Counted from the whole stretch's first letter, positions 149 to 61,483 are shown. The stretch is DNA of 63,782 nt, filler included, from an uncultured Methanosarcinales archaeon (GCA_964519225.1; 3 parts of 3 records of this genome joined end to end with filler, not necessarily neighbours in it); one strand, 5' to 3'. Numbers and translations are program-made. Notes: generated by a model not told the origin, from the sequence alone.

Positions 149-667
149 ATGAAACTAAGCAAAATAAAAAGGAATAAGAAAGGTTCTGTGCAGGACTTGC
201 TCTTGATAGGCGTAAGCTTGTTTGTGCTGTCATTGGTTGTTCTGATATGCTTCAGGATTTCAACCTCGCTCAACACAGAGTTTCAGGCAAACGATAATAT
301 TGATTCTTACGGCAAGGCAGCTCACCAGCAGATAACCAACATGTATCCTGGCATCATAGACAACTCATTCATATTTGTCACTGTAATACTTTCAATAGGT
401 GCTTTAATCCTGGCAGCCTTGGTCAGGATTCATCCAATCTTTTTGCCAATATACATCATTGCCTGGATATTTGTCATATTCATGTGCTCTATATTTTCAA
501 ATGCTTACCAGGAAATGGCTGCCAATCCTGACCTTTCAGCACTTGCAGCACAGATGACATTCATGAACCAGGTAATGACCACCCTGCCTTTTATTGTTGG
601 CATAGTGGGTGCTTTGCTTGCTATTGTAATGTATAAGGCTTACAGGAGTGAACAATATGGATATTAA
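149..667 (+). CDS. Membrane protein with class III (pilin-like) leader; putative virion or morphogenesis protein
   Basis: KRNKKG|SVQDLLLIGV followed by about 4 hydrophobic segments; in the structural block. Confidence 0.7.
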   Translation: MKLSKIKRNKKGSVQDLLLIGVSLFVLSLVVLICFRISTSLNTEFQANDNIDSYGKAAHQQITNMYPGIIDNSFIFVTVILSIGALILAALVRIHPIFLPIYIIAWIFVIFMCSIFSNAYQEMAANPDLSALAAQMTFMNQVMTTLPFIVGIVGALLAIVMYKAYRSEQYGY

Positions 668-3600
668 GAAAACAATGTTAATGCTTGGATTTGTTCTGTT
701 AGTCTTGCTTAGCTCTGGATCTGTCTGTGCTGATGAATTATTAGCTTCCAACTCAACTGGAACAGATACAGCTTCTACAAGTTATACATTAGTAAAAACT
801 TTTGATTTTTCAACTTCACCATATATTGTTACTAAACATATAAATAACATTAGAAATGGAAATCCAAGTGGAACTGTTTATTGCAAAGTTATATGGACTT
901 ATACAGATGATTCAACTGCTTATGTAGAAAATAGTGTAACTGGAATTACTGGTGTAGTAAAAACTTATACAAATCCAAATACAACAATAAGAGTTAAATC
1001 TATTGGAGTATGGTTAAGGGTTTCAGCTTATGGAGGCTATGAATCGGCAGATGAAGTATGGGGTTATGCAGGTCCAACACAACCCCCAGAGTTCACAATA
1101 TACCCTGAAACAGCATACACAGCAGATGACCTGTATGCAGACTTCACAAGCACAGACGCAGACAACGACACGATAGTCTTCAACTGGAACTGGTCGAACG
1201 GGACAACGGAAGCAATAAGGTTTATTGATGACGGCTCACTTGTGAGCTATTACGCAATGGATGGCACGGAAGCAAGCACAGTTTATGATTACTCTGGCTC
1301 AAATGACGGAACAATGTCTGGCTACACGCAGAACAACGGAGCAAGAAACGGCGGAGTTGAAATAAGCACAGATGACGGCAAGTATGGCTATGGTGCTGGG
1401 TTTGATGGGGTTGATGATTATGTTGAAGTTCCTCATGATAGTTCTATATCTTTTGATAATACTATTAGTAGTTCTTTTTCTTGGTGGATGAAATGTGATG
1501 AACAAACTGGTGCTTCAAGAATATTAAACAAAGGCATTAATTATTATGGATGGATTGATGACCATGATGGAGCAGAGAAGAACGACTATAAGTTTGTTAT
1601 ATATGATGGTTCTAATTCTGGTATAGTTTATGCAGATAATGTATGCGATAATAGTTGGCATAATGTAGTGTTTGTAGTTGATAGAACACAGCAGAAGATT
1701 TTTAGTTATGTTGATGGAACTTTAGATGATACAGATGATGATATTTCTGATGTAGGGGATTGTAGCAGTGTAGATAATCTGTTTATAGGTGCAAGTGGAG
1801 GAACTGCCTATTTTTTCAACGGCTCTCTTGACGAAGTCCGCATATGGAACAAAGCACTCACGCAGGAAGAAATACAGGCAGAGATGGAAAGCTCAAACCC
1901 AGTAAAGGGCGATGGACTGGTGGCAAGCTACTCTTTTGAACAGCATAACTCAACGCACGCACTTGACACAAACCATCTGGTAAAGGGCGAAATAGCCGAA
2001 GGAATTACTTTTGATGGGGTTGATGATAAAATATTAATTCCTGATTATTCAATGAATCATACAAGCGGAACTTTTTGTTCTTGGGTTAATTATAATGATA
2101 GAGGTCCATCAAATAGAGAGCCAATATTTGGACATAAGAATTCAGGAAAAACTTGGAATGGACCTACTCTTGTTTTTTATAGTTCAACAAGTTTAAGGTT
2201 TTATGATTATGATGATGTTTATATTGTAGCGACTTTACCTATATTAGGTGAATTTGCTCATTATTGTATTACATGGAACTCTACAGGCAGTTCTATTTTT
2301 GTTAATGGTGAATTAAAGAGTTCAGGAGGTGTATCTCCAAATATGAATAACCCAAATAGTCTTAGGATAGGTTCAACTTATGTTAGTGGAGATAAGTATA
2401 TTCATGGCTCAATAGACGAAGTCCAGATATACAACAGAAGCCTTTCAGAGAGCGAAATAAAAGCCCTGTATGAAGGCTCAAGGCATTACTCAAACGGCAC
2501 TCACGCAGAGCTGGACAGCTCACTTACAAGCACATTTGACACATGGACTTTGGATGTCACGCCTTACGACTACTTAAATGCTGGGACATCAAGGACAGCC
2601 TATGCTTACATTGACGACACGCTTGCACCTGAAATAACCACAGATGACATAAGCCTCAACAAGACAATAGTGTACTCAAGCGACAACCTTACTGCACAGA
2701 TAAATGCAACTGACAACTTTCTTTACAGCATAAATGTTTCAATAGACGGCACATCCATATTCAACACATCAGGCATTGGTGCAACAACTTATGTTTATAA
2801 CCTAAGCCAGAACATGAGCAGTTATTCAGTTGGAGAGCACAACATATCATTCAGAGCCTGCGACGGACACACTTCTGCGGAACTAAAAGACAAGTGGGAT
2901 TATGATGTAGGGCTAAGCGGACTGACATTCAAGGATGACAAGGACAAGAACAAATGGTACAGGATTAATCCAACAAACAATGACATATTTGAAAGGATTT
3001 CAACCACAAGACTGAAAGACAGGTATGATTTTAGATACCAAAAAAGCAGGGTTGGTGAACTGTTCTCAAAATCAACTGAGTACAGCTTCATAGTTGAAAG
3101 CACAGAATATATTGACATCATAAATCCACAGCAGACTGACTACAAATACAAGGACAAATACAAAGCTTGGCTTGTAATAAAGGACATAGGGCAGAACGGC
3201 AGGTGGATTGACTTTAATTTAAAGGATGCGCCTGAAGCAAAATACAATATAAAGAGGCTGAGCCTAACAAAAGTCAGGGTAACTATATCAAACATCCCAA
3301 GAAACATGAAAGAGCTTGTGTTTGAGTCAACAGGAGAGTTGAACTGTGTTACAGAATATTACTTGTTTTATGTTTACAATTACACGACAAGCTACACAAC
3401 ACCTGTTCTTGAAACATCAAGCCAGACATTCACTTTAAACATAACAAAAGATTCTGATTACATTACAGATGCCAATGCAACTCTGCACTGGAACGGCACA
3501 GCTTACACACCGACAGAAACGACAAACGGAACTTATTTTTATTATACAAAAACAATTACAATGCCTTCAGTAGATGCAAACACAAATGTAACATTCAATT

Positions 3601-4787
3601 GGACTTACACTTTAGAAGGCGAAGAAAATACCACAAGTAGAACAGCAAGCGAAACCCAGCTAATATATAATATAGACATGGATGACTGCTCGACATACAA
3701 TATAACTGCATTAAACTTTTCGCTTGTAGAGGAAAGCAACAACGCTTCAATCAACGGCAGCATGGACTTCACATTCAGTCTGGCACAGGAAGGCACAACG
3801 ATAAATTACTCAAAATCTGTGACTAACAGAAACTGGACTGCGTTCTGCATACCAAACAATAACATAAATTTTACTGCACAGCTGCAGTCAGAATACTCTG
3901 CAGAAGGTTATGATGCACACACATACTTTGCATACAACCTTGCAATAAATAATGAAACACAACATATAACTTACTATCTCACAAACGGCACGACAATTGT
4001 TGAGTTCACTGTATTGGACCAGAACGGCGATGAAGTGGAAAATGCTTATATCAAAGTAAAAAAGTATGACATCGGCACAGGAACTTACAAGACCATTGAA
4101 ACCCTGAAGACTGACCAACAGGGCAAAGCATTGGGAAACATAATATTAGATACTGCATGGTATGAGTTTGTTGTTGAGTATGGCGGAACAGTTTACCTTG
4201 AAGATGGACCTACAAAGATAACAACAACATCAAGAACATTCAGGATAAACCTTTTGTCAGATTTCTTTGACAGATACACAGATGTAATATATGGCATTAC
4301 ATCAAGCCTTAACTACACAGATTCAACTGGCAACTTCAGGTTCACATGGAGCGACCCAGACGGAAATTACCATTACGGCTGTTTGAAAGTTACAAAAGAG
4401 AGTCTTGCTGGCAACACCTTAATCAATGATACCTGCGTTCAGTCAACAGCTGGAACAATATTAGTCAATATTAATGACAGTGGTTCTGTCAACGGAACTT
4501 ATGTCGCAGTCGGCTACATAAAGTTTGATGAGCCTTATGTCCTGCAGGTATTGAGGAAGACTTGGGGAAGCTTGTCAGAAACATTCGGAAATGAAGGTTT
4601 GTTTTATGCCTTCTTGATAATACTTACCGTTGCAATGGTTGGAATATTCGCACCAAAGATTGCAATGATTTTGGCTGTCATAGGGCTTGTGTTCAGCAGC
4701 ATATTAGGGTTCTTCAATATGAACCCAAGCTGGATAATAGCTTTGGTAATCGCAGCTGGGCTAACAATATACAGGATGAGGGATTAA
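648..4787 (+). CDS. Large secreted LamG/concanavalin-like domain protein with C-terminal TM helices; putative receptor-binding protein
   Basis: Signal peptide; two LamG cores (FDGVDD...GSLDEVRIWN and GSIDEVQIYN); many N-x-S/T sequons; about 3 C-terminal TM helices. Confidence 0.85.
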   Translation: MNNMDIKKTMLMLGFVLLVLLSSGSVCADELLASNSTGTDTASTSYTLVKTFDFSTSPYIVTKHINNIRNGNPSGTVYCKVIWTYTDDSTAYVENSVTGITGVVKTYTNPNTTIRVKSIGVWLRVSAYGGYESADEVWGYAGPTQPPEFTIYPETAYTADDLYADFTSTDADNDTIVFNWNWSNGTTEAIRFIDDGSLVSYYAMDGTEASTVYDYSGSNDGTMSGYTQNNGARNGGVEISTDDGKYGYGAGFDGVDDYVEVPHDSSISFDNTISSSFSWWMKCDEQTGASRILNKGINYYGWIDDHDGAEKNDYKFVIYDGSNSGIVYADNVCDNSWHNVVFVVDRTQQKIFSYVDGTLDDTDDDISDVGDCSSVDNLFIGASGGTAYFFNGSLDEVRIWNKALTQEEIQAEMESSNPVKGDGLVASYSFEQHNSTHALDTNHLVKGEIAEGITFDGVDDKILIPDYSMNHTSGTFCSWVNYNDRGPSNREPIFGHKNSGKTWNGPTLVFYSSTSLRFYDYDDVYIVATLPILGEFAHYCITWNSTGSSIFVNGELKSSGGVSPNMNNPNSLRIGSTYVSGDKYIHGSIDEVQIYNRSLSESEIKALYEGSRHYSNGTHAELDSSLTSTFDTWTLDVTPYDYLNAGTSRTAYAYIDDTLAPEITTDDISLNKTIVYSSDNLTAQINATDNFLYSINVSIDGTSIFNTSGIGATTYVYNLSQNMSSYSVGEHNISFRACDGHTSAELKDKWDYDVGLSGLTFKDDKDKNKWYRINPTNNDIFERISTTRLKDRYDFRYQKSRVGELFSKSTEYSFIVESTEYIDIINPQQTDYKYKDKYKAWLVIKDIGQNGRWIDFNLKDAPEAKYNIKRLSLTKVRVTISNIPRNMKELVFESTGELNCVTEYYLFYVYNYTTSYTTPVLETSSQTFTLNITKDSDYITDANATLHWNGTAYTPTETTNGTYFYYTKTITMPSVDANTNVTFNWTYTLEGEENTTSRTASETQLIYNIDMDDCSTYNITALNFSLVEESNNASINGSMDFTFSLAQEGTTINYSKSVTNRNWTAFCIPNNNINFTAQLQSEYSAEGYDAHTYFAYNLAINNETQHITYYLTNGTTIVEFTVLDQNGDEVENAYIKVKKYDIGTGTYKTIETLKTDQQGKALGNIILDTAWYEFVVEYGGTVYLEDGPTKITTTSRTFRINLLSDFFDRYTDVIYGITSSLNYTDSTGNFRFTWSDPDGNYHYGCLKVTKESLAGNTLINDTCVQSTAGTILVNINDSGSVNGTYVAVGYIKFDEPYVLQVLRKTWGSLSETFGNEGLFYAFLIILTVAMVGIFAPKIAMILAVIGLVFSSILGFFNMNPSWIIALVIAAGLTIYRMRD

Positions 4788-4788
4788 A

Positions 4789-5202
4789 ATGGGATTCAAA
4801 CTTGATTCATTTATCATTGGGGTCATAATATTTTCATTCATAATAGCTGTTGGCTCAGGAATGATTGTCAATATGGCAGACAATTATGATGTGGAATATG
4901 ACAATGAGTTTAGAGCTACTTATATTGTTATAGAAGATATGTATAATGACACCACAGCCCAGAAAGAAGATGTCTTTGGCGGTGAGATAGAAGAAGAAGA
5001 TGCACTTGACAGTGCAATAAAGGGCGGAACATCTGCACTAAAACTATTGACAAGCCCAATAAAAATCACAAGTGCCGTGGTTGGTGACATCCAGGAGAAG
5101 ACAGCACCAGCAGTGGACATCAGATTATATTTCACAACAGCATTGACAGTCTTGGTTACATTTGGCTTGATATATTTGTTTTTTAGGATAAGGAGTTGGT
5201 AA
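4789..5202 (+). CDS. Two-TM membrane protein; putative minor virion protein
   Basis: Hydrophobic N- and C-terminal helices around an acidic loop; tightly coupled to the adhesin gene. Confidence 0.7.
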   Translation: MGFKLDSFIIGVIIFSFIIAVGSGMIVNMADNYDVEYDNEFRATYIVIEDMYNDTTAQKEDVFGGEIEEEDALDSAIKGGTSALKLLTSPIKITSAVVGDIQEKTAPAVDIRLYFTTALTVLVTFGLIYLFFRIRSW

Positions 5203-5205
5203 AAT

Positions 5206-5532
5206 ATGGTGTATAACCTAACATCAGTGAGTAACACAACTGGAATACTTGATTTCATACAGAAGATGGACAACAACATCTTTTGCTATGGAGCAGGTTG
5301 CGGAGGAGAAGGCGGTCTGTTAGGCACAGCCATCATAATAATCTTGTTTGGAATCCTTATGATAAACTTCTTGTCAAACGGCAGGGAGTTCAACTCTTCT
5401 TTGATGAGTGCGGCCTTCATCTGCTCAATCACTGGTGGTATATTGTTTCTTATGGAACTGATTACACCAACTACAATTTATATATCAGTATTGGTTTGGG
5501 CAGGAAGTGTTGCGATTGGAAGTAAAAGATAA
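5206..5532 (+). CDS. Small multi-TM membrane protein; putative virion protein
   Basis: Three hydrophobic segments; N-terminal sequons NLT and NTT. Confidence 0.7.
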   Translation: MVYNLTSVSNTTGILDFIQKMDNNIFCYGAGCGGEGGLLGTAIIIILFGILMINFLSNGREFNSSLMSAAFICSITGGILFLMELITPTTIYISVLVWAGSVAIGSKR

Positions 5533-5664: not shown

Positions 5665-5940
5665 GTGAAACTCATGAATAAAAAGGGTCAAATCGAAGCT
5701 TTAGTTCCTTTAGTGATTTCGCTGGTGGTCATAGGAATACTGTTAGTTGTAGCATTCCTTGTATTTGCACAGGTTGCAGCTAACTCATCAGTCGCAGCAG
5801 ATGGTAATGCAACAGCAGCAATACAAGCAGTGCAGGAAGCAACTGATGACATTCCAGGATGGTTACCAATAATTGTTGTTGTAGTCATAGGAGCTCTGTT
5901 GATTGGACTTGTCAGTTTCCTTAGGGCAAGAGCAAGATGA
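5665..5940 (+). CDS. Putative major capsid protein 1 (two hydrophobic helices, spindle-virus-like) with class III leader
   Basis: NKKG|QIEALV leader; helix-loop-helix with NSS/NAT sequons in the loop; basic C-terminus; own promoter and strong RBS. Confidence 0.75.
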   Translation: MKLMNKKGQIEALVPLVISLVVIGILLVVAFLVFAQVAANSSVAADGNATAAIQAVQEATDDIPGWLPIIVVVVIGALLIGLVSFLRARAR

Positions 5941-6211
5941 GAAAAATGAACAATAAAGGACAAATTGACGCTTTGCAACCACTGATAGTTGCTTTGGTTG
6001 TAATAGCTATTGTCTTGGTTGTTGGTTTTTTGATTTTTGCCGAAGTTCAGGATCAGATAGTCAGCATCGACAGTGTTGATGAAACAAACACATCAACTTG
6101 GAGCTATGGTTACAATTCATCACAAGATGTAACCAGCGCAATGGCAGACATACCAGGATGGCTTCCAATCATAGTCGTGGTTGTCATAGGAGCTCTGTTG
6201 ATTGGACTTGT
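5884..6211 (+). repeat. 29-bp identical direct repeat shared by the two capsid paralogues
   Basis: GTCATAGGAGCTCTGTTGATTGGACTTGT at 5884-5912 and 6183-6211. Confidence 0.95.
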
Positions 6212-6239
6212 GTCATTCCTAAGAAAACAGGCGAGATAA
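5937..6239 (+). CDS. Putative capsid protein 2, paralogue of the preceding gene
   Basis: NNKG|QIDAL leader; C-terminal DIPGWLPIIVVVVIGALLIGLVSFLR identical to paralogue; ATGA overlap. Confidence 0.75.
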   Translation: MRKMNNKGQIDALQPLIVALVVIAIVLVVGFLIFAEVQDQIVSIDSVDETNTSTWSYGYNSSQDVTSAMADIPGWLPIIVVVVIGALLIGLVSFLRKQAR

Positions 6240-6300: not shown

Positions 6301-6540
6301 TTAAGAAACAGTAATGTTTAACACATCAGTAGGTATGAACCTTTCAGTCTCATACTTGTCAATACGAACAAAGCACATGCAGTTGTTTCGGATGAAAGCT
6401 GAATAATGCTTATTGCACTTTTTTATGCCTAACTCGTAGCCTTGCCTTGCTCCAACAAGCAGGGCAATGGCTATTAATATCGCAATTAAAATACACAGGA
6501 TTAAATTATCTCCTTTATTTCTTTTTTTTTCTGATTTCAT
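6301..6540 (-). CDS. Small membrane-anchored Cys-containing protein
   Basis: One TM helix; C-x9-C-x-C motif. Confidence 0.55.
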   Translation of the reverse strand: MKSEKKRNKGDNLILCILIAILIAIALLVGARQGYELGIKKCNKHYSAFIRNNCMCFVRIDKYETERFIPTDVLNITVS

Positions 6541-7665: not shown

Positions 7666-7933
7666 TTTTTTGCCTCCTAATATTTTAATCTGAATTGAAT
7701 AATACCATGATGCCCCATATTATTGTTATGGCACATGCCATCAACGCCCAGTATGGATTTCTTAGTCCAACTATTCCTATTATTATGAATACTAAGCCTT
7801 TGAGTTTCATTGATTATCCAACTCCCTCAGCCAATCAATGATCCTGTGGATGTTGAACATGATTGTTCCGCCAAAAACTATTACAATCAATATTACAAGC
7901 TTCTGGAAAAAGTCAAGCTGGATATTTGGTGGT

Positions 7934-8182: not shown

Positions 8183-8938
8183 TTATTTTGTTAAAATTAA
8201 AATTTTTCTTATCATTTTTACATAACTTGAAGTTGTACAATATGATTCAGCAGTATATTTAATATTTCTGTGACCTAAAAACTTAGATAATAATTCTATT
8301 GGCATTCCATTATCATAATAAAACACAGCCCCAGAATGTCTAAGTGAATTAAGGTTAATATCTTTCTTTAAGACTTTTTTTGATAATTTTTTAATTTTTT
8401 TTTCTATTGACCTTACCCCAAGAATTTTAAAATTATCGGTCAAAAACTCATTTGTTTGTTTGATTATTGGATTAATAATAGGAATAACCCTGTTTTTTAT
8501 TTTTATTAATCCTCTTTCAATATCAACATCTTTTTTCTTAATATTAGCAATCTCATTTGCTTTCAAACATAATAAGAAACCAAGTTTAATATAAAATTTA
8601 GTATCCTCATTTTTTGATTTAGAAATTAATAAATTAAACTCTTCAAAACTTATGATATTTAATCTGTTTCTTTTTTCTTCATAATAATTTACTCTCACAA
8701 ACTCTGGGGTATTAATATCCCCCTTTCTATGAACTTTAATATGACATTTGTAACAAATAGTGATTAAATCATTTAAAGTTTCATTAAATAAATTATTATA
8801 AGTAATATGGTGAACTATTAAATCTTTTTTAGAATTACAGAACTGACAAGTATAATTATCCCTATTTAGAACTTTTCTTCTTAGAATGTTCCACTTTTTA
8901 CTTTTTATATATTTCTGAAATTTTTCTCTCTCATTCAT
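8183..8938 (-). CDS. HNH endonuclease fused to a degenerate tyrosine recombinase catalytic domain
   Basis: RDNYTCQFC...VHH...NDLITICYKCHIKVH, then LKANEI / SLRHS / LGH...Y. Confidence 0.85.
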   Translation of the reverse strand: MNEREKFQKYIKSKKWNILRRKVLNRDNYTCQFCNSKKDLIVHHITYNNLFNETLNDLITICYKCHIKVHRKGDINTPEFVRVNYYEEKRNRLNIISFEEFNLLISKSKNEDTKFYIKLGFLLCLKANEIANIKKKDVDIERGLIKIKNRVIPIINPIIKQTNEFLTDNFKILGVRSIEKKIKKLSKKVLKKDINLNSLRHSGAVFYYDNGMPIELLSKFLGHRNIKYTAESYCTTSSYVKMIRKILILTK

Positions 8939-8939
8939 T

Positions 8940-9098
8940 TTACAACTCTTTTAACACAACATCACCATCCATTTGCATATTGAAAGCCAATACTTTGCCT
9001 TTTTTCCAACCTTTGAGCTTCATAATCTCAAAAGGTATTGTAATTCTATATTGCTTTTTACCAGTTATTTTTTGTATACTTTCTTGAATCTTAGGCAT
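8940..9098 (-). CDS. AbrB/SpoVT-type DNA-binding protein (52 aa, not in ORF track)
   Basis: Own translation MPKIQESIQKITGKKQYRITIPFEIMKLKGWKKGKVLAFNMQMDGDVVLKEL; GGAGG RBS. Confidence 0.8.
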   Translation of the reverse strand: MPKIQESIQKITGKKQYRITIPFEIMKLKGWKKGKVLAFNMQMDGDVVLKEL

Positions 9099-9128
9099 TT
9101 TATTATATTCCTCCTATTAATATTTTAA

Positions 9129-9160
9129 TAGTATTATGGTAATACTAACTAATATATAAA
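9129..9160 (-). promoter_or_regulatory. Palindromic operator and TATA box upstream of the AbrB-like gene
   Basis: TAGTATTA-TGG-TAATACTA perfect palindrome at 9129-9147; TTTATATA on the minus strand. Confidence 0.65.
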
Positions 9161-9331
9161 TGTTTCCTTTTAATTAACCCCAATCACCAATCATCTACTA
9201 AAATAAGATATTTAAATGAAAACCAAACACAAAAGAATAATAAAACAAGAGAGATATACCAATATTCCCACCCATAAGCAAGTAACATATCAGTATGTTT
9301 TCCAGCCTGTTGGAATATTTCTTCAAACATT

Positions 9332-9940
9332 TTAGTCATTTATTAATGGCTTTTTTTCTATTTCTTCCCTTAAATCTTCAGATGATAAGTCAGAATACCA
9401 CTCAAGTATTGTTTTGATAGTATCTCCAGTATTCTGCTGAACAAACTTAATATCCCTTCCTGCTTTCCTGCTCAACCTAATGAAAGTATGCCTCAGCCAA
9501 TGAGAGCCAACTATGTGAGCATAAGGAAAATCTATCTTTTTGCACCATCTTTTTAATATCCTGTTAGCTGTCTTTTCAGAAAAAGGAAACAATCTCTTGT
9601 CCTTAATGCCTTCTATCTGCCTCTGCTTGAGCCACATCTTCAAGCTTGACCTTACAAACTCCGGCCAATATACAAATCTCCACTTATCTTTCTTATGATC
9701 GTAAGTATATGTCCTGTTCTCTTTCCAGTCAATATGCACAATTTCTGTGTTAACAACATCAGAAACCCTCAGGCCTGTCTGGCTGTGATACAAGATATAT
9801 GTCCTGTCCCTTATATCATCAACTACTTGGTATAACTTTTTCAAATATTGCTGTGGAATATACTTGTCCCCTTTGCTGATTTTATTAGACACTACTAAAG
9901 ATTTTTCTTGTTTTACATCATTTTTTTGCATCATTTTCAT
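9332..9940 (-). CDS. Short tyrosine recombinase/integrase (catalytic domain only)
   Basis: TGLRVSD, K, HWLRHT, TGD...WY motifs; 202 aa with no arm-binding domain. Confidence 0.85.
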   Translation of the reverse strand: MKMMQKNDVKQEKSLVVSNKISKGDKYIPQQYLKKLYQVVDDIRDRTYILYHSQTGLRVSDVVNTEIVHIDWKENRTYTYDHKKDKWRFVYWPEFVRSSLKMWLKQRQIEGIKDKRLFPFSEKTANRILKRWCKKIDFPYAHIVGSHWLRHTFIRLSRKAGRDIKFVQQNTGDTIKTILEWYSDLSSEDLREEIEKKPLIND

Positions 9941-13809: not shown

Positions 13810-13908
13810 TTTTTGCTGATTTTGGTCATTTTTCTGTTTTCAGATTTTTTCTTATTTTCTCAAAATCTTGCTGATTTCTGAAATTCATATATGAATGCGG
13901 TAAAAAAA

Positions 13909-14007
13909 TGTCACACTTGGCACACTTGCCACCCCACTTCAACCCTATAGTAAACATTTTCTTTTATATAAGGGTAAAATGGGGTGGCAAGTGTGGTAAC
14001 CGTGGCA
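13909..14007. other. Long inverted repeat; putative replication origin
   Basis: CACACTTGCCACCCCA (13921-13936) / TGGGGTGGCAAGTGTG (13980-13995) perfect arms around an AT-rich core, abutting the primase-helicase stop codon. Confidence 0.7.
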
Positions 14008-16374
14008 TTATAAAACCTCTTCAACTTCAGCAATATCCACTTTTCTTTGAACATCTACCCAGTACCAAACCCTATTATTCCCTTCTTGAATCCTATCTGG
14101 ATAAGCCCCATTGTATTCCATTACTCCCTTTATGGTCTTGTCTCCTTTTGGCCTTCCAAGATTGTTCTGTTTGCACCAGTTGACATAATCTTTCCTTATC
14201 AAGTCTTTTTCAGTGCGGCCTTCACCAAACACTAACATTTCATTACAATACGCCTCAAAGCTGTTAGACTTCCTTATATACATCTTTTTTATTTGGTTAG
14301 TGCTTTTGTTATAGCTGAAAAAACCTTGCTTCTCAAGCCGTTTAAAGCCCTCTATAGCCCAATTAAGCAAACCCGAAAGTTCCTGCCTTGTTGTGATTTT
14401 CTTTATTATGTCTGGGTCTCTTAACTTTATATTGCCATTTTTGCCATCCATATCCTTTTCATCAACAAATTTCATAGGGTAATTGATTAATATGATTCTA
14501 TCATAAAAAGCATCACTGCCATCATAACTTATTGGGAGCTCATTAAGGCCAAATATTAATTTTGCATAGTTTGTGAATTTAATTGGTTCTAAGAATTTTC
14601 TGTTTGCTTCCTGTAAATCTCCTCCGCTTAATGATTTGAGTATATTTGAGTTGGTTATTGCATTCTTTCCTATATCTCCAGAAATGTTAATTAGTTTCTT
14701 ATGCAATGAAACCTTTGTAAACTCATTGTTTGAAAGATCATCAATAGAAACTTCTGAACAGTTTTCAATACCTATAAGGCTTTTGAGCAAATTAAGTGTA
14801 ACACTTTTGCCGTTTCTTCCAACTCCTTCCAAAATAAAAATATGATGGTATTTATATTCTCTTAACAAAGCAAAACCAAATATTTCCTGCATTAACACAA
14901 TGTCCTCCTTTGAACTAAGTACCTCGCTAAAGAATTTCTTGCATTCAGGACAATCTGCACTTTCATCAAAATAAACAGGAAGCTTTGCAAAAAACTTATA
15001 TTTTGGGTCAAAATCCATTAACTGGCCACTTTTTAAGTTTAAAATACCATTTTCGACAGGGATTAAGTATTCTGGCTTTGTTTCTTTGAATAAATCCTCT
15101 TGTTTTATATAACTCCTTATTTTTATTTTTTCACATACTTGGTTTATAAAATAAGTTGTGTAATTCTCATTAAGTATGTTATCAACATACTCTTTTATTG
15201 TTGTTATCCCTTCTGGAATATATATCCCATTTTGGTATATCCAAACTTCAGGATTTTTGTCGCTTCTTGTTGTATAAACTTTGTGTTCTTTTAAAAAAAG
15301 ATTTGCCAGGAGTTCGGCAGCTTTCTTTTTCTTATTCAAAATCATTAATTGGATTATATTCTGCTTTGTTATTTCAGAATCATTGTTTTGTTGTTTTGTC
15401 TCTTTCTCGTTAATAAGGCCTTTCTTAACAGCAAGATTATATGCAACCTCCAGAGCTTTTTTATCCCCTTTAATCTTGCTTAGCCCTCTGCCCTTGTGTG
15501 GTGTTCCTGCATCTTCGCAGCTGGCATATCCAGCTTCAACGCAAAGGTATTGCACAGCATTAAGAGAAACCATATGCCGCCAGCAGTGGCCTAATGAACC
15601 ATCACTGCTTAAACTGAAATTACTCCTCGTTTCACTTTCATGCAATGGATGGCTTACTCTTTTGCTCTGCGGAATTAATCCAACAATATCAGAAACCTTT
15701 AATTTGAACAACTCATCATATTTTCCGCTTGTATAACCCTTAAATTCCTCTTTCTGCTTTATTTTAGTCTCAATTTCAATGTTTTCCCTTTGCTTATCTT
15801 TAAAGAATTGCGGCAAGTCTTCAAAACTCATTAGTTTTGGCTGCAAGGCATCCTTAACTGTGTAATAACCGGCATCTTGGTTATTATTGTTTTCAGTAGG
15901 CACAAAAGAGCCAGGTGATAGTACATATTGGTTATTACTCCTCATTTCTCCGGAATCTGTCGGCATGTTGATTTTTGCAGTGTCATCCTTGTTCCATCCA
16001 AAGAAATGCCATCCTTCTCTTTTCCTGCTTGTTACTGTTAATGTATTTTTTGGCAACTGGTCAAAATATTTTTTATCATCAATATCTCCAATAATTAAAA
16101 TATCATCTTTTCTTGCACTTATTCCAATGTTATAGCCTTGCTTTATGTGTTCAATGCATTGCTCCTTGCTTAATCTTGCTGATTTATGATGCCAAGAACC
16201 ATTGCTTGATTGGTCTATTCTTAATATGGCTGTTGGGCTTGGGTCTTTTCTGTTTGGCTTGCATGGAAAAAACCAAGGGGTATAATCTTCTGGAGCATTC
16301 TGCATAAGTAAAGCATAAAACTTTTCAAATTCCTGAATGCATTTATTTATATCTTTCTCCATCTGACATTCCAC
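14008..16374 (-). CDS. Primase-polymerase / D5-like SF3 helicase replication protein
   Basis: Prim-pol motifs DIDD and GWHFF; His/Cys Zn-like region; D5_N (IPVENGILNL); Walker A GVGRNGKS. Confidence 0.92.
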   Translation of the reverse strand: MECQMEKDINKCIQEFEKFYALLMQNAPEDYTPWFFPCKPNRKDPSPTAILRIDQSSNGSWHHKSARLSKEQCIEHIKQGYNIGISARKDDILIIGDIDDKKYFDQLPKNTLTVTSRKREGWHFFGWNKDDTAKINMPTDSGEMRSNNQYVLSPGSFVPTENNNNQDAGYYTVKDALQPKLMSFEDLPQFFKDKQRENIEIETKIKQKEEFKGYTSGKYDELFKLKVSDIVGLIPQSKRVSHPLHESETRSNFSLSSDGSLGHCWRHMVSLNAVQYLCVEAGYASCEDAGTPHKGRGLSKIKGDKKALEVAYNLAVKKGLINEKETKQQNNDSEITKQNIIQLMILNKKKKAAELLANLFLKEHKVYTTRSDKNPEVWIYQNGIYIPEGITTIKEYVDNILNENYTTYFINQVCEKIKIRSYIKQEDLFKETKPEYLIPVENGILNLKSGQLMDFDPKYKFFAKLPVYFDESADCPECKKFFSEVLSSKEDIVLMQEIFGFALLREYKYHHIFILEGVGRNGKSVTLNLLKSLIGIENCSEVSIDDLSNNEFTKVSLHKKLINISGDIGKNAITNSNILKSLSGGDLQEANRKFLEPIKFTNYAKLIFGLNELPISYDGSDAFYDRIILINYPMKFVDEKDMDGKNGNIKLRDPDIIKKITTRQELSGLLNWAIEGFKRLEKQGFFSYNKSTNQIKKMYIRKSNSFEAYCNEMLVFGEGRTEKDLIRKDYVNWCKQNNLGRPKGDKTIKGVMEYNGAYPDRIQEGNNRVWYWVDVQRKVDIAEVEEVL

Positions 16375-27884: not shown

Positions 27885-28016
27885 ATGGTAAGCCATACAA
27901 GGAACACATTGGTTCATGAGGAACTGAGAAAGTTCCTCAAAAGAGTATATCCAAACAAGACAATGCCAAAAGCAACAAAACAAATGGCAGAGGACTTGTG
28001 GGATGACTTGATATAC
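27885..28016 (+). CDS. 57-aa protein spanning the circular junction (continues to position 152)
   Basis: MVSHTRNTLVHEELRKFLKRVYPNKTMPKATKQMAEDLWDDLIY|GKRIRTKYKDKFK*; TGA at 150-152 overlaps the ATG at 149. Confidence 0.75.
27907..28016 (+). repeat. Terminal direct repeat, copy 2
   Basis: Matches positions 1-110. Confidence 0.97.
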
Positions 28017-28116
28017 NNNNNNNNNNNNNNNNNNNNNNNNNNNNNNNNNNNNNNNNNNNNTTAATTAATTAANNNNNNNNNNNNNNNNNNNNNNNNNNNN
28101 NNNNNNNNNNNNNNNN
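28017..28116. other. Artificial contig spacer
   Basis: N-run with TTAATTAATTAA six-frame stop linker. Confidence 0.99.
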
Positions 28117-33427: not shown

Positions 33428-33858
33428 TCCAAATGCCAAAAAAGATCCAAACCCTTAAGACTCCTGTCGCAAAACAGTTTTACGATGGACTTGCAAAAGG
33501 AAAAATTCTTGGAATAAAATGTAAAGATTGCGGAAAATGGACATTTCCTCCAGTAACTGCGTGCAGAGAATGCAACAGCAGAAACGTTCAACTAAAGCCA
33601 ATCAGCGGTGACGGAAAAGTACTTTTCTACTCTACTTCAATACTTCCACCAAAGAAATTCCAGCCATATTCGCCATACGCCTACGGACTAGTAATGCTTA
33701 AAGAAGGTCCTTCCTTCTTTACAATGATCGAAGGACTCGATGCAAGAACACCAGAAGCAATAAAGAAAGGAAATGAAAAACTACCGCTGCCGGTAAAAGC
33801 AAAAGTATCCAAAAAAGCAGGAATGAACGTTGTCGTATTCAAAGTAGTTAAAAAATGA
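33424..33858 (+). CDS. DUF35 Zn-ribbon/OB-fold thiolase partner
   Basis: CKDCG...FPP...CREC followed by OB-fold; coupled to the thiolase gene. Confidence 0.93.
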   Translation: MIQMPKKIQTLKTPVAKQFYDGLAKGKILGIKCKDCGKWTFPPVTACRECNSRNVQLKPISGDGKVLFYSTSILPPKKFQPYSPYAYGLVMLKEGPSFFTMIEGLDARTPEAIKKGNEKLPLPVKAKVSKKAGMNVVVFKVVKK

Positions 33859-34103
33859 ATCCAAAAGAGATAGAAAAAAAGTTCAAAGAAATCGTTGCAG
33901 ATATTTTTCATGTTCCTGTAAGCAAGATAAAAGGAACAACCCGTTTTGTTGAGGATTTAAATGCAAAATCAATGGATATTGTTGCATTGATAGCAGCAAC
34001 AGAAAACACTTTCGGTATAAAGGTTCCAACGCAAGAAGCAAGAAAAAACAAAACAGTAGCGCAGGCAATAGCTTACATCAGGAAAAAACTCAAAAAACAA
34101 TAG
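33855..34103 (+). CDS. acpP: Acyl carrier protein
   Basis: FVEDLNAKSMDIVALIAATENTFGIKV...TVAQAIAYI matches the ACP pattern; Ser39 attachment site. Confidence 0.88.
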   Translation: MNPKEIEKKFKEIVADIFHVPVSKIKGTTRFVEDLNAKSMDIVALIAATENTFGIKVPTQEARKNKTVAQAIAYIRKKLKKQ

Positions 34104-34413
34104 CTACAGCAACAGCAACATTTTCAGCATAACTAATGCTTACTTCAACCCTTTTCTTTTCTTTTCCAATCAAAGCATAGGGCTTTCCATTCGTTTTATG
34201 AAGAATTTCCACATCTGCAAAATCAATTTTACAATCAAATGCCTTTCTAACAGCTTCTTTCGCAGCAAACAATCCAGCTAAATGTAAAATCGCATCTTTA
34301 TATTTGGCAGCGTATTGCTTTTCTCTATCTGAAAAAACCCTGTTCAAAAACTCACTCTTATTAGCCCGCATTCTGAATTTTCGAACATTAACAGCATCAA
34401 TACCAATCATCAT
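34090..34413 (-). CDS. acpS: Holo-ACP synthase (4'-phosphopantetheinyl transferase)
   Basis: IGID, FAAKEAVRKA, NGKP, VSISY. Confidence 0.93.
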   Translation of the reverse strand: MMIGIDAVNVRKFRMRANKSEFLNRVFSDREKQYAAKYKDAILHLAGLFAAKEAVRKAFDCKIDFADVEILHKTNGKPYALIGKEKKRVEVSISYAENVAVAVAIVF

Positions 34414-44509: not shown

Positions 44510-45112
44510 ATGAAAATACTCGCTTTTGTTGATTTGCACAGCAACATGTCAGCGCTAAAAAAGATAATCAGAAAATCAAGCCAGGCAGACCTGATTCTTT
44601 GCGCTGGAGACATCAGTTTATTTGAAAAACAACTTAACAAAATATTTGAGCTTCTTGCCCAGATTGAAAAACCAGTCTTAATCATCCACGGCAACCATGA
44701 AGAACCAACTACGTTAGCCAAGCTTTGCAAGCATCATAAAAACATCATTTTCATACATAAGAAAATAAAAAGCTTCAATAAAGCTGTATTCATCGGCTTC
44801 GGAGGAGAAGGATTCAGTTTAACAAGCAGAGATTTTGAGCATTTTATCAAAAAGAAAAAACACGAGCTCAATGAACTTAAAAAGAAAAACAAAAAATTAA
44901 TTCTTGTAACGCATGCTCCACCATTCGGATATCTCGATAAAGTGAATTCTCACCACGCAGGAAACAAATCATTCAGAGATTTCATCGTCAGATTTAAACC
45001 ATCATTGCATATCTGTGGACATTTTCACGAACATGCCGGAAAAAAAGTAAAACTGGATAAAACAAAAATAATAAACCCGGGTCCAGAAGGAAAAATCATT
45101 CAAATCTCATAA
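44510..45112 (+). CDS. Metallophosphoesterase (Icc-like)
   Basis: DLH, GD, GNHE, THAPP, GHFHE. Confidence 0.93.
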   Translation: MKILAFVDLHSNMSALKKIIRKSSQADLILCAGDISLFEKQLNKIFELLAQIEKPVLIIHGNHEEPTTLAKLCKHHKNIIFIHKKIKSFNKAVFIGFGGEGFSLTSRDFEHFIKKKKHELNELKKKNKKLILVTHAPPFGYLDKVNSHHAGNKSFRDFIVRFKPSLHICGHFHEHAGKKVKLDKTKIINPGPEGKIIQIS

Positions 45113-46052
45113 TTCTTCCTTCAAAATCTTTCTCCATTAACAAAACAACCCTGCTAGCGCTGTTTTCATCTATAAACTTATAGTTAGACTCTGCAGAAAT
45201 CAACTTGGCAAATTCTTTAACGTCTTGATGAAACGGCATGTTTGTAGGACTTAATCTATAGCTCGAAAAACCAACATGCATGTAGGCTTTCACTTCAACA
45301 AATAAAGGTTTGGCAAGTTCAATTAGCTTTGCATAATTCTCTGGCTCAACCATATTCCAGCCTTTAATCAAAGTGATTCTTAGTGTTGTTCTCGTCTCAT
45401 CTCTTTTCTTTCTAAGTGCCTTCAAACTTTTCATTAACAAATCCCATCCTTTTTTAAGCTGTGGTTGAGAAATCTTTCTGAACAGTTCCTCGTTCGGAGC
45501 GCTTATCGAAACATACAGCTGTGTTGGACTAATCTCAGCAAGCCTGTCAGGAAACATTCCATTACTTACGACAAAAGTCGTTTTTCCTATCTTATGAAGC
45601 TTTTCTATCAGCTCTGCAAGCCTTGGATAAGCAGTCGGTTCGCCAGCAAGCGAAATTGCAAAATGCATCGGTTCCATTGCTTCTTTAAATTTTTTCATAT
45701 TTGTTTTCGGATTGCCTTTGAATCCTACCAATTGTCTCCGTTGCATCGCTGCAGCATTTTTTATTAATTCATCAGGCTCATCCAAGCTGCCTCCAACCAA
45801 AGCAGAACCAACAGTATACTCTATTGGTCTCCAGCAAAAGATACACCTATTCGGACAAAATCCTATAGAAGGGCTCATCTGACAGCATCTGTGTGATTTA
45901 ATGCCATAGAATTGTTGCTTATAGCATACTCCTTCATCAAGCAAGCTTTTCTTCGTCCAATAGCAGATCTTTATAGCGCTATGACTACCGATAAAAGCGT
46001 ATTGTTGCTTTTCCAAAACCTTTCTCAGCTCAGCAGGAATCATCACAAGCAT
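45096..46052 (-). CDS. tyw1: 4-demethylwyosine synthase (radical SAM)
   Basis: CYKQQFYGIKSHRC; CPNRCIFCWRP; SLAGEPT. Confidence 0.95.
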   Translation of the reverse strand: MLVMIPAELRKVLEKQQYAFIGSHSAIKICYWTKKSLLDEGVCYKQQFYGIKSHRCCQMSPSIGFCPNRCIFCWRPIEYTVGSALVGGSLDEPDELIKNAAAMQRRQLVGFKGNPKTNMKKFKEAMEPMHFAISLAGEPTAYPRLAELIEKLHKIGKTTFVVSNGMFPDRLAEISPTQLYVSISAPNEELFRKISQPQLKKGWDLLMKSLKALRKKRDETRTTLRITLIKGWNMVEPENYAKLIELAKPLFVEVKAYMHVGFSSYRLSPTNMPFHQDVKEFAKLISAESNYKFIDENSASRVVLLMEKDFEGRIMRFE

Positions 46053-47322: not shown

Positions 47323-47813
47323 TATCATTCAAACAATCAGTCCAAAAAATCAAACAAAGCAAAGCATTCAAAGACTGGGAAGGCCAAAACAAGCAGGCTT
47401 TCTTATGCTTCGGTATGATAATCCCAGAAAAAGAAGAGTTCTGGTCCATTGGCTTTTATGATCCAGAAAAAGACGAGATTACAAATTTTATTGCCGGCAA
47501 AACCATAATCAAAGAAAAATCAGATAAAGTATTTAAAACAAAATCAATGGAGGTGCTGCCAATACAACTTAACAAACTGAAAATAAAATCAACCGATGCT
47601 CTTGAAAAAGCACAAGCGATAAGAAAGGAAAAATATTCGAATGAAACGCCAATTGAAACAATCCTCATAATTCAAAATCTTAAACCCTTTGGCCTGATCT
47701 GGAACATAACCATAGTCACGATATCGCTAACGTCAATAAACATCAAAATCAATGCAACAACAGGAGAACTACTGCAAGAAAAGAAAATATCTTTGTTTTC
47801 ATTCAAAAAATGA
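47319..47813 (+). CDS. Hypothetical protein (PepSY-like C-terminus)
   Basis: WNIT...IKINATTGELL. Confidence 0.65.
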   Translation: MISFKQSVQKIKQSKAFKDWEGQNKQAFLCFGMIIPEKEEFWSIGFYDPEKDEITNFIAGKTIIKEKSDKVFKTKSMEVLPIQLNKLKIKSTDALEKAQAIRKEKYSNETPIETILIIQNLKPFGLIWNITIVTISLTSINIKINATTGELLQEKKISLFSFKK

Positions 47814-48709
47814 AACACTCATTGAAAATCACAATTATCCTGCTCCTATTTTTCTTATCTTCACAACTGCTCGGTCTTGCAATCGTTCGCAGTTACATTG
47901 ATGTTGAAAAAACAATCGAAACAGGAACGGTTCAATGGAAACCTCTCCTAAAAGTAGGCAAAACAGAATTAATAACAAGGCCAGAAATGCAACCAAAAAC
48001 AGGTTTTCTATTCATTCTATTTGCAATACTTATCGGAACGCTTATTGTTTTCTTGATAATCAAATTGAAAAAATTTGTTCTCTGGAAAGCATGGTATTTC
48101 TTAGCTGTTATGGCATGTTTAGCAATAGCATTCAATGCCTTTATACCAACGATTATTGCGATAATCCTAGCAATTATTCTTGCATCACTTAAACTACTTA
48201 GACCAAGCATCATAATCCATAATGCAACAGAAGTTTTCGTCTACGGAGGCTTAATTGCAATATTTGCTCCAATATTCAACCTGTCCTGGGCTTCCCTGCT
48301 TTTAATCGCAATCTCAATCTATGATATCTATGCAGTATGGCGTTCAAAGCACATGATAAAACTTGCAAAGGCACAAACAAAAGCAAAGATTTTCGCAGGT
48401 CTGCTCATACCCTATAAAATGCCTGCTATGAAAACTATAAAGATCGAACACCGTCAAAAAGCAGAAAAGAAAAGAGTTAAAGCAAGGGCAGCAATCATTG
48501 GCGGTGGCGACATCGGCTTTACTTTGCTTTTCGCATCGACAATAATGAAAGAAATTGGGTTTGTCCATGCACTTATTACTGTAATCGCTGCAACAGCAGC
48601 ACTTGCATCCCTTTTCCTTCTTGGAAAAAAAGAACGCTATTATCCTGCAATGCCTTTTCTAACAGCAGGATGTTTTGCTGGATTACTACTTGGAGCATCT
48701 ATTTTTTAA
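47810..48709 (+). CDS. Presenilin/SPP-family intramembrane aspartyl protease
   Basis: IYDIYAV, GGGD and PAMP motifs; multiple TM helices. Confidence 0.9.
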   Translation: MKHSLKITIILLLFFLSSQLLGLAIVRSYIDVEKTIETGTVQWKPLLKVGKTELITRPEMQPKTGFLFILFAILIGTLIVFLIIKLKKFVLWKAWYFLAVMACLAIAFNAFIPTIIAIILAIILASLKLLRPSIIIHNATEVFVYGGLIAIFAPIFNLSWASLLLIAISIYDIYAVWRSKHMIKLAKAQTKAKIFAGLLIPYKMPAMKTIKIEHRQKAEKKRVKARAAIIGGGDIGFTLLFASTIMKEIGFVHALITVIAATAALASLFLLGKKERYYPAMPFLTAGCFAGLLLGASIF

Positions 48710-52366: not shown

Positions 52367-52954
52367 ATGAGAGAATTTCTCATATTCTCGAGAACAGCAA
52401 GGACAGGCGGTAAGATAAATCCAAAACACTTATTCCAAGAAGGAAGACTCGACATAATCAGAGATTTCATTGTTGAAGCATTCTTCACAGCAAACAAAAA
52501 GCGCTCAGCTACAGTACATTGCTTTCTCTACGGCCAACCAAATCCTCCATTGCATTTAACCATAACATCATCAGCTCCAATATCAATCGATCGCACAAAA
52601 ACAGCAACGCTTATCGCGGATTTGATAGGCAAAAAGAAAAAAATCAAAGGTTGTGAAATGAAAAAAGAAAGCGTAATAGAATTCCTGACGAAAGCGTCCA
52701 GAACAAAAACAATCTATCTCCTCGATAGAAAAGGAAAACCAATCAATGAATTAAAAATTTTGCCAAACGCGATATTCTGTTTTGCAGATCATCTTGGCTT
52801 TCCAAGAAAAGAATTCAAAAGAATCTCGACTATCTCAGCAGAAACTATTTCACTTGGAAAACAAACATACTTCGCTTATCAGGCATTAACGCTACTTCAA
52901 TATTTCCTTGACAAAAAGGGGTTGGAATCAACTAGCGAATTAACAACATATTAA
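52367..52954 (+). CDS. trmY: tRNA (pseudouridine54-N1)-methyltransferase, SPOUT
   Basis: MREF...GRLDII...DHLG...ISLG. Confidence 0.8.
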   Translation: MREFLIFSRTARTGGKINPKHLFQEGRLDIIRDFIVEAFFTANKKRSATVHCFLYGQPNPPLHLTITSSAPISIDRTKTATLIADLIGKKKKIKGCEMKKESVIEFLTKASRTKTIYLLDRKGKPINELKILPNAIFCFADHLGFPRKEFKRISTISAETISLGKQTYFAYQALTLLQYFLDKKGLESTSELTTY

Positions 52955-54071
52955 AATAAGGAAAAACAAAATTCAAAACAAGTAACAGCAGCATCAATGC
53001 GCTTATATGCCTAAAAATCCTTTCACCCCTTTTGCCAAAAAACCTCTTCAAAAGCACAAATAAAATTCTTCCGCCGTCAAGAGGACCTGCAGGAAGCAAG
53101 TTAATCAACCCAATTCCGAGATTCAAATTCAACATCCACGCAAAAAGCGTAAACAGAAAAAGCAAAACAGGAGCAAACATGTGAACCTTCTTGAAATTCT
53201 GTGTTATGTAAATACCAAAGTATCCTTTTCCAGGCATATCCGGATTCTCAGCAATCTTCACATCGAATTCTCTGTCAACAGTTTTAACATGAACAACAGA
53301 ACCAGCAGAAATATTCATCATAACTTGTTTAAATTCCTCAACTGTTTTTATCCCAATGCCATTCAATCCAGTTATGACATCTCCTTCTTTGAACAGCTTT
53401 TCGGCAGGAAATCCTTTCATCACTCCCTTAACTAAAACACCGTTCACTTCAAATGCATGCCCAACAGCAGGATAAAGCAGAAAAGCAAGTAAAAGAAAGC
53501 AAAGACCCCCAACAACAAAGTTCATAACAGGTCCAGCAGCAAAAACATCAATCTGCTTTTTCCAGTTCTTTTTCTTCAACTGCTTTTCATCAGGCTCAAC
53601 AAAAGCTATAGGAAAAATAGCAAAGAATCCAAATCCAGTATTCTTTATCCTCGTCCCAATTGCTTTTCCAACAATACCATGAGCAAATTCATGAACCAAA
53701 ACCACAACAAAAATAGCAATTATTCCCTGCCAAAAAGGAATATAAACAGCACTACCCGGAATCCTTACACCAGGAATAACAAGCGAAACAGCACCAGCAG
53801 CAGCTGGATTCTTAATCAGCTTTACAAGATTCGCAGCAAGAAAGAAAACAATAACACCCATTCCAACAATGCCAAAATATCTCGAAACAACGCCAAATCC
53901 TCTAACAACACGTCCAAACTTTTTAACAACCCAGTCTATCGCTTTCAAGCCGAACTTCGTTTTGCACAAAAAAGCAATTTTATAATAAACCTTAAATTTA
54001 CGTCTAAAAATAAAAATTAATATTCCAACTACAACATAAAATAACAAAGCAGAAACCAAATTAAAATTCAT
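52932..54071 (-). CDS. Site-2 protease (M50) with PDZ domain
   Basis: HEFAH; AGP..N; NLLP..PLDGG. Confidence 0.93.
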   Translation of the reverse strand: MNFNLVSALLFYVVVGILIFIFRRKFKVYYKIAFLCKTKFGLKAIDWVVKKFGRVVRGFGVVSRYFGIVGMGVIVFFLAANLVKLIKNPAAAGAVSLVIPGVRIPGSAVYIPFWQGIIAIFVVVLVHEFAHGIVGKAIGTRIKNTGFGFFAIFPIAFVEPDEKQLKKKNWKKQIDVFAAGPVMNFVVGGLCFLLLAFLLYPAVGHAFEVNGVLVKGVMKGFPAEKLFKEGDVITGLNGIGIKTVEEFKQVMMNISAGSVVHVKTVDREFDVKIAENPDMPGKGYFGIYITQNFKKVHMFAPVLLFLFTLFAWMLNLNLGIGLINLLPAGPLDGGRILFVLLKRFFGKRGERIFRHISALMLLLLVLNFVFPYFNMLLIR

Positions 54072-55267: not shown

Positions 55268-55367
55268 NNNNNNNNNNNNNNNNNNNNNNNNNNNNNNNNN
55301 NNNNNNNNNNNTTAATTAATTAANNNNNNNNNNNNNNNNNNNNNNNNNNNNNNNNNNNNNNNNNNNN
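55268..55367. other. Artificial contig spacer
   Basis: N-run with TTAATTAATTAA. Confidence 0.99.
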
Positions 55368-61318: not shown

Positions 61319-61378
61319 GAATTTCCGCTTTCGTTTTTTTTAGAAAACGAATATTTAATAATATATGATAGGAGTGGA

Positions 61379-61452
61379 TGGGGCGGCCGGGATTTGAACC
61401 CGGGACACCACGGTCTTCAGCCGTGTGCTCTCCCAGGCTGAGCTACCGCCCC
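61379..61452 (-). tRNA. tRNA-Phe(GAA)
   Basis: Cloverleaf GGGGCGG...CACGG-CTGAAGA-CCGTG...GGTTCAAATCC...CCGCCCCA; no intron; no encoded CCA. Confidence 0.97.
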
Positions 61453-61483
61453 AAACTAAAAACAGCTGTTATTTGCTTCCAAA

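Follow-up and report, generated by a model that had tools for sequence, protein, structure and literature searches.

All type IV pilin precursors require Gly, Ala or Ser at position -1 of the site cut by the prepilin peptidase, and in archaea a charged residue at -2 is critical and the site is located ahead of the hydrophobic domain (PMC4371748). PibD is lax with regard to the residues at +1 and +3, and EppA of Methanococcus maripaludis needs a Gln at +1, its substrates carrying the sites RAQI, KGQV, KGQV, KGQL and KGQI (PMC4371748).

A processing site in a similar position is found in the spindle-shaped virus SSV1, in which the virion form of VP1 starts at Glu66; a genetic study from 2017 describes the responsible protease as unknown (PMC5748691). 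According to the same study, deletion of residues 61-65 abolishes infectivity, and the substitutions E66Q and E66A are tolerated, giving misshapen particles. We found that residues 61-65 read KLTKG and are located right before helix 1 (SSV1 record L003, 12567-13001). The pattern [KR][GA]↓E, in which the arrow marks the cut, was present at the VP1 site in all nine fuselloviruses that we checked (five with Gly, four with Ala), namely SSV1 and eight others chosen to span the identity range among the best 40 of 60 tblastn-matched fusellovirus records. The leaders of these nine proteins have very different lengths, and VP3, the paralog of VP1 in SSV1, has no leader and begins at the corresponding position.

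The VP1 cut would lie on the cytoplasmic side of a helix that is followed by an external loop, which is the place of a prepilin peptidase and not that of signal peptidase I (PMC4371748). The published genetics of VP1 also fit cleavage by a prepilin peptidase, with residues -5 to -1 being essential and +1 being tolerant (PMC5748691), and PibD is reported to be lax at +1 and +3 (PMC4371748). In the freely readable full-text literature, we found no prepilin peptidase or class III signal tied to the capsid protein of an archaeal virus. SSV9 adsorbs to a pibD mutant of Sulfolobus islandicus, but no virus is produced, for which the authors blame the missing pili (PMC7217056). This result is compatible with missing pili as well as with an unprocessed coat and does not discriminate between the two. 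Furthermore, both VP1 helices stay in the capsid of fuselloviruses, and the N-terminal region of VP1 in the structure of SSV19 was described as arginine-rich and DNA-binding (PMC9351363), which means that a basic N-terminus can have a role in the virion.

Anatomy of two tandem hairpin proteins

We examined a stretch of 63,782 nucleotides (hereafter the window), in which two paralogous membrane proteins of hairpin type are encoded head to tail on the plus strand. The first, recognized as an ORF and by its conservation within a family, has 91 amino acids (5665-5940) and starts with GTG; an in-frame ATG at 5674 would give a protein of 88 amino acids. The second has 100 amino acids (5937-6239), and its ATG overlaps the stop codon of the first gene. 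The two proteins are 57% identical (E 2e-27) and are built in the same order, with a basic leader ending in K-G, a Gln, a hydrophobic helix of about 25 residues, and a loop with N-x-S/T sequons. The C-terminal half consists of a second hydrophobic helix, which is near-identical between the paralogs, and a basic C-terminus. The leaders are MKLMNKKG (5665-5688) and MRKMNNKG (5937-5960), with a putative cut before Gln9 in each (MKLMNKKG↓QIEAL and MRKMNNKG↓QIDAL). Both the K-G↓Q leader with its hydrophobic helix and the combination of a sequon loop with a second hydrophobic helix, by which a first-pass annotation of this DNA had set the proteins apart from pilins, were seen in the two ORFs on the plus strand, and the second helix and tail are conserved in the family.

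An AlphaFold2 model of the 100-aa protein, built on a 34-row alignment, has predicted helices at residues 6-45, 57-69 and 76-99, with a mean pLDDT of 74. The mean Kyte-Doolittle hydropathy over the 21 residues after +1 is 2.6-2.8. Polar residues interrupt the beginning of this segment, with D/E at +3 and Q/P at +6/+7, and a fully hydrophobic stretch starts about 7 residues past the Gly. Helix 1 is strongly conserved, with L27 and F31 being invariant in the family alignment, which suggests that it is retained in the mature protein. In 137 of 145 representatives, helix 2 is preceded by a sequon at a distance of no more than 25 residues, and this arrangement would place the loop outside and the leader on the cytoplasmic side, where prepilin peptidases cut.

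Relatives in species-representative genomes were confined to a single locus (L001), a 5.5-kb contig labelled Woesearchaeota. Four tandem paralogs of 91, 94, 100 and 168 amino acids, all with K-[GA]↓Q leaders, are encoded at 1793-3224 in this locus, compared with two in the window. In the model of the longest of them (pLDDT 84), helix 1 leads into a beta-sandwich (residues 47-123), which sits in the loop and has a pLDDT above 90 over most of its length, and a short helix precedes helix 2. We considered the possibility that this long-loop paralog is a pilin-like "lollipop," and dropped it after a Foldseek search that returned no pilin or archaellin and had a phage tail Ig-like domain as its best match (E 0.16).

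Conservation of the K-G site and possible routes of maturation

The two proteins belong to a large family. A word-indexed search retrieved 320 proteins at E<=0.01, and an exhaustive profile search retrieved 878 representative clusters at E<=0.001, of which 308 had E<=1e-10. The N-termini were aligned in 298 rows, representing 297 distinct sequences, as the 100-aa protein of the window is present twice. Position -2 is occupied by K or R in 281 of the 298 rows (K 268, R 13), and position -1 by G (217), A (67) or S (2), summing to 286. On the other side of the putative cut, Q dominates at +1 (227 rows, followed by V in 23 and A in 17), and +2 is hydrophobic in 290 rows, +3 is D or E in 208, and +5 is L in 249. 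The first-pass annotation had named the conservation of K-G↓Q in homologs as one of the observations on which its proposal would stand or fall, and the counts at -2, -1 and +1 bear the proposal out on this point.

The picture is similar after clustering at no more than 50% identity. In 135 of 150 representatives, [KR][GAS] is found in register and in five more it was shifted by the aligner. The other misses comprise one protein with Pro at -1, three N-terminal fragments, and six leaderless proteins that begin with Met at about 3 residues or less from the putative +1, for which wrong start calls are possible. G, A or S is located at -1 in 140 and Q at +1 in 91 of the 150 representatives, and both proteins of the window have the Q. 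Where the pattern could be located (136 of 149 representatives), leader length ranges from 3 to 18 residues, and the median is 7. Given this conservation within the aligned family, the motif is, as far as sequences can tell, beyond chance. The almost exclusive use of G and A at -1 would moreover follow from a peptidase rule, whereas a helix cap alone would allow a mixture of S, T, D and N.

The site agrees with the published rules for class III signals in having G, A or S at -1, a charged residue at -2 and a location ahead of a hydrophobic domain of membrane length. It also has the +1 glutamine of EppA-type substrates, but not their glutamate at +5, which is mostly L here, with the acidic residue being placed at +3. 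The closest resemblance is to the Epd pilins, the substrates of EppA, which share the short basic leader, K/R at -2, G/A at -1, Gln at +1, the location of the cut before the hydrophobic domain and N-glycosylation sequons downstream. The family contains the variants KA↓QI, KG↓QV and KG↓QL, and the KG↓QI of the two window proteins is identical to the published site of EpdE, the major pilin of Methanococcus that is cut by EppA (PMC4371748, Table 1). Unlike the Epd pilins, which have the acidic residue at +5 and a globular pilin domain, the hairpin proteins have a second membrane helix and a basic cytoplasmic tail, and they lack the architecture of pilins and archaellins, with one helix, a globular beta domain and no further membrane helix. 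Judged from the primary structure, the signal is of a known type and the proteins that carry it are of a new class.

Profile searches did not recover the signal. No class III, pilin or archaellin profile from Pfam or NCBIfam matched the two window proteins at E<=1, and there was none among the matches listed at E<=10 for 34 family members, nor in six further members. A regular expression modelled on the strict pattern of FlaFind, a program that the first-pass annotation had proposed as a check, was false for all hits, which is due to the acidic residue at +3. Two family members carry the JGI name "UPF0333 family," which we take to be the class III pilin-like family of Methanococcus.

Independent support for the K-G site comes, at the level of sequence conservation, from a 172-aa membrane protein with about four hydrophobic segments (counted by eye) that is encoded at the start of the same gene block (149-667, plus strand). 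Its leader, which ends in NKKG↓SVQDLLLIG, was already pointed out in the first-pass annotation and is indeed present, though the protein is unrelated to the hairpin proteins and no paralog of them. In 73 of its 77 homologs, [KR][GA][STG]xx[DE] is found directly before helix 1, behind leaders of 3-50 residues; the four exceptions are two near variants and two truncated proteins. Other small membrane proteins nearby vary in this respect. A 79-aa protein (6301-6540, minus strand) has RNKG↓DNLIL before its helix and a homolog at the L001 locus with MRG↓DNLIL, and a 41-aa ORF (7685-7810, minus strand) starting with MKLKG↓LVFIIIG may carry a further leader of the K-G type. Two proteins of 137 and 108 amino acids (4789-5532, plus strand) are encoded without a K-G leader.

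We propose that the hairpin paralogs are substrates of a host prepilin peptidase and serve as the main membrane or capsid subunits of the virions of a circular archaeal virus-like element of about 27.9 kb, a reading of the sequences to which we assign a probability of roughly 0.5. The precursor, with its short basic leader, would insert into the membrane as a helical hairpin with the N-terminus inside, leaving the glycosylated loop outside and the basic tail inside. A type IV prepilin peptidase of the host (PibD/FlaK/EppA type) would then trim the protein after K-G at the cytoplasmic face, giving a mature subunit whose first residue is the Gln that precedes helix 1. A site of a similar kind is present in at least one further membrane protein from this gene block, namely the one encoded at 149-667. 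We infer the cleavage itself and the identity of the enzyme from the motif. No match to Peptidase_A24 or a similar prepilin peptidase family was obtained for any of the 85 ORFs in the window that were scanned against Pfam, in line with the earlier remark that none is recognizable on the contig, and this would make the element dependent on the pilus-maturation enzyme of its host. The second contig of the window encodes a presenilin/SPP-type aspartyl intramembrane protease and an M50 site-2 protease (47810-48709 and 52932-54071), neither of which is a prepilin peptidase.

An alternative explanation, which we consider doubtful though it deserves to be taken seriously, is that the leader stays on the protein. 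A basic N-terminus could simply set the orientation of the hairpin with its N-terminus inside and perhaps contact DNA, and K-K-G-Q would then be an interface or packing motif. The failure of class III profiles to match is in accordance with this explanation, as are the distance of about 7 residues between the Gly and the fully hydrophobic stretch, and the DNA contact ascribed to the basic N-terminus of VP1 in SSV19 (PMC9351363). On the other hand, topology alone leaves the G or A at -1 in 284 of 298 rows unexplained, and the unrelated 172-aa family keeps its site regardless of leaders that range from 3 to 50 residues. The six representatives that start near the putative +1 without a leader also speak against this explanation, provided that their start calls are right, and VP1 of SSV1 is cut at the equivalent place.

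Yet another possibility is that helix 1 acts as a signal peptide, long and of the Sec type, from which signal peptidase I would release a single-pass coat protein of about 65 amino acids. Such a protein would be acidic at its N-terminus and basic at its C-terminus, like those of the filamentous phages. A site of the signal peptidase I type after helix 1 (FLIFA↓E) shows a degree of conservation similar to that of the K-G site in the 298 rows, with I or V at -3 in 291 rows, A, S, G or T at -1 in 279 rows, G or A at -6, and E or Q as the next residue. Similarity to coat proteins of this kind was sub-threshold: the Pfam family Phage_coatGP8, with a match of 11.5 bits against a cut-off of 24.6, had E-values of 0.36 (91-aa protein) and 0.0025 (protein encoded at 149-667), and PHROG 1646, annotated as "major coat protein," matched the 91-aa protein at 7e-5 but only 1 of 34 family members. 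The hairpin proteins do resemble the inovirus procoat (g8p) in being small precursors of coat type that insert as a helical hairpin and have a basic C-terminus. They differ in that their helix 1, of about 20 residues, is among the best-conserved parts of the protein, as is hardly expected of a disposable signal peptide, and is probably retained, and in that the matches fall below the curated cut-offs. Moreover, the predicted AlphaFold2 helix at residues 6-45 runs continuously through the supposed site, and both helices are retained in the fusellovirus capsid (PMC9351363). We therefore think it improbable that this is how the proteins are matured. The proposal that a host prepilin peptidase matures the subunits, as put forward in the first-pass annotation, is supported in part, being strengthened by the conserved motif and its fit to the published rules, and weakened by the lack of a class III profile match and by the conserved rival site.

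A putative virion role and the nature of the element

We infer a capsid role for the hairpin proteins from their architecture, the tandem paralogy, the position of the genes after an adhesin gene, and a weak language-model lead from the ESM Atlas. The architecture known from VP1 of SSV1 and VP21 of His1 is found here as well, with a length of about 70-100 amino acids, two hydrophobic helices and a location in a morphogenetic gene block with an adhesin. This adhesin, putatively receptor-binding, has 1379 amino acids (648-4787, plus strand; Laminin_G_3, E 3e-42), an ordinary Sec-type N-terminus, two LamG/ConA-like domains and a C-terminal membrane anchor, and the 137-aa and 108-aa membrane proteins are encoded between it and the hairpin proteins. 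In spindle-shaped viruses, the capsid genes likewise follow a large adhesin gene, as described in a preprint (10.1101/2021.07.29.453957). The nearest clusters in the ESM Atlas are 86-100% viral, and the nearest named ones are VP1_VP3 (0.85) and His1_capsid (0.82), which are leads only, as both scores are below the 0.9 line of the tool.

The resemblance to VP1 and VP3 of the fuselloviruses includes the two-helix hairpin, a sequon right before helix 2, a basic C-terminus and the tandem arrangement of paralogs. With VP1 of SSV1, the proteins further share an N-terminal [KR][GA] site directly before helix 1, removal of the preceding residues being known for VP1 and predicted here. The analogy with SSV1, which the first-pass annotation had based on N-terminal proteolysis in general, is thereby stronger than stated, since VP1 is itself cut after K-G and before helix 1, and [KR][GA]↓E is found in 9 of 9 fuselloviruses. 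The proteins are unlike VP1 in that several of the SSV leaders are much longer and the residue at +1 is Glu, and in that no sequence or profile similarity was detected. They also resemble VP21 of His1 and the wyrdvirus capsid proteins (about 80 amino acids) in size, in having two hydrophobic segments and in the nearby adhesin gene, whereas VP21 of His1 has an acidic N-terminus without K-G (hhalign probability 0.3% in this comparison). In ORF121 of PAV1, which we take to be the major capsid protein of this virus, the first helix is not flanked by [KR][GA], and not all spindle-type viruses therefore share the motif. The PAV1 record also contains ConA-like lectin proteins, comparable to the LamG/ConA-like domains of the adhesin in the window.

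Homology to the capsid proteins of SSV or His1 was undetectable, and the earlier label "capsid-like" is therefore based on architecture, gene context and the weak language-model lead. In hhalign comparisons with VP1 of SSV1, VP3 of SSV1, VP21 of His1 and the 9-row fusellovirus alignment, the probabilities did not exceed 8% (3%, 0.3%, 0.5% and 8% in the four comparisons, the value of 0.3% being that for VP21), and the VP1_VP3 and His1_capsid families of Pfam did not match the two window proteins at E<=1. A search of the PDB with the family profile gave one irrelevant match (E 0.13), and a Foldseek search with the model of the 100-aa protein gave none below E 0.1 in the PDB and BFVD, the best BFVD match being unnamed (E 0.35). 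With tblastn, the 100-aa protein matched none of 50,697 records of phages and archaeal viruses, and VP21 of His1 found only His1 itself in records of this kind. Matches of the two proteins and 34 family members to curated profiles (Pfam, NCBIfam and PHROGs) were sub-threshold and of the type caused by transmembrane composition, and were rejected.

The genes for the hairpin proteins are located on the first of three contigs (1-28016), which are joined in the window by runs of N (28017-28060, 28073-28116, 55268-55311 and 55324-55367) around the stop-codon spacer TTAATTAATTAA, at 28017-28116 and 55268-55367. Features are not readable across these joins, and the genes of the presumed host have no physical linkage to the virus-like element. 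A direct terminal repeat of 109 nt with 96% identity (1-109 and 27907-28015) implies that the first contig is circular or terminally redundant with a length of about 27.9 kb, and it probably represents a complete circular element. The reading of this contig as a provirus was rejected, as the flanking "host" DNA is located on other contigs that are joined to it only by N spacers.

Most proteins of the element are without a match in Pfam or other families. Exceptions are two tyrosine recombinases identified in the Pfam scan (8183-9940, minus strand), the one at 8183-8938 with an HNH/zinc-finger-like N-terminus and the second at 9332-9940 (no attachment site having been identified), a D5-like primase-helicase that represents the replication module (14008-16374, minus strand), and a PAPS reductase. 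An imperfect inverted repeat of 48 nt (13907-14009; 77% complementary, 7 nt between the arms) is located directly downstream of the primase-helicase gene, with its 3' arm touching the stop codon of the gene, and is possibly an origin or a regulatory site.

We also considered the possibility that the hairpin proteins are not capsid subunits at all. They could belong to the membrane or a filament of an element that is plasmid-like or forms vesicles, or could be true pilin-like subunits of a filament that the element encodes. Neither a packaging or morphogenesis ATPase nor a known capsid fold was found on the first contig, which together with the undetected capsid homology is what such an element would look like. 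However, pilins have neither a second membrane helix nor a basic tail in the cytoplasm, and the 168-aa paralog, modelled as a helix, a beta-sandwich and two more helices, matches no pilin or archaellin. The location of the genes after a large adhesin gene, as for the capsid genes of the spindle-shaped viruses (10.1101/2021.07.29.453957), and the viral nature of the nearest ESM Atlas clusters also argue against this possibility, which we regard as quite unlikely.

The presumed host and a possible wider meaning of the site

The second and third contigs are cellular archaeal DNA of a Woesearchaeota-like kind. For TYW1 (45096-46052, second contig), seven of the 120 homologs listed are named, six as Candidatus Woesearchaeota and one as Pacearchaeota. 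The element may thus belong to a DPANN archaeon, to which it is linked by binning, an association that was seen twice. The longest contig is given as 11448 nt both in a TYW1 cluster from Woesearchaeota and in a cluster of the 91-aa protein; this shared value could reflect an integrated copy adjoining TYW1 or be a coincidence.

The third contig encodes a type II/IV secretion ATPase of the FlaI/PilB-like kind that is split by an intein with a LAGLIDADG endonuclease (55399-59178), and is followed by a 712-aa protein without a Pfam match and a tRNA-Phe gene (61375-61453); no pilin gene was seen. On the second contig, genes for an acyl carrier protein and a 4'-phosphopantetheinyl transferase (33855-34413) adjoin thiolase/DUF35-type genes and an Ack-Pta pair, a set that would be unusual for an archaeon.

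If the hairpin proteins are trimmed as we propose, viral coat subunits would represent a new class of substrates for the archaeal prepilin peptidases. This would provide a concrete host assembly factor for a very large and uncharacterized virus family, with its 878 representative clusters at E<=0.001. The old question about VP1 would be recast as whether PibD cuts the protein at KLTKG↓E, and the finding that the pibD mutant of S. islandicus yields no SSV9 would deserve a second look (PMC7217056).

We further put forward, very tentatively and as a conjecture that is rather unlikely to hold in full, that trimming by a host prepilin peptidase is a general step in the maturation of the hairpin coat proteins of spindle-type viruses, including VP1 of SSV1. 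The element in the window may moreover represent the first virus of such a type to be described in association with DPANN archaea, here of the Woesearchaeota-like kind. If the process is general, spindle-type viruses would need the pilus-maturation enzyme of their hosts, and their coat subunits would share the N-terminal logic of the type IV pilins.
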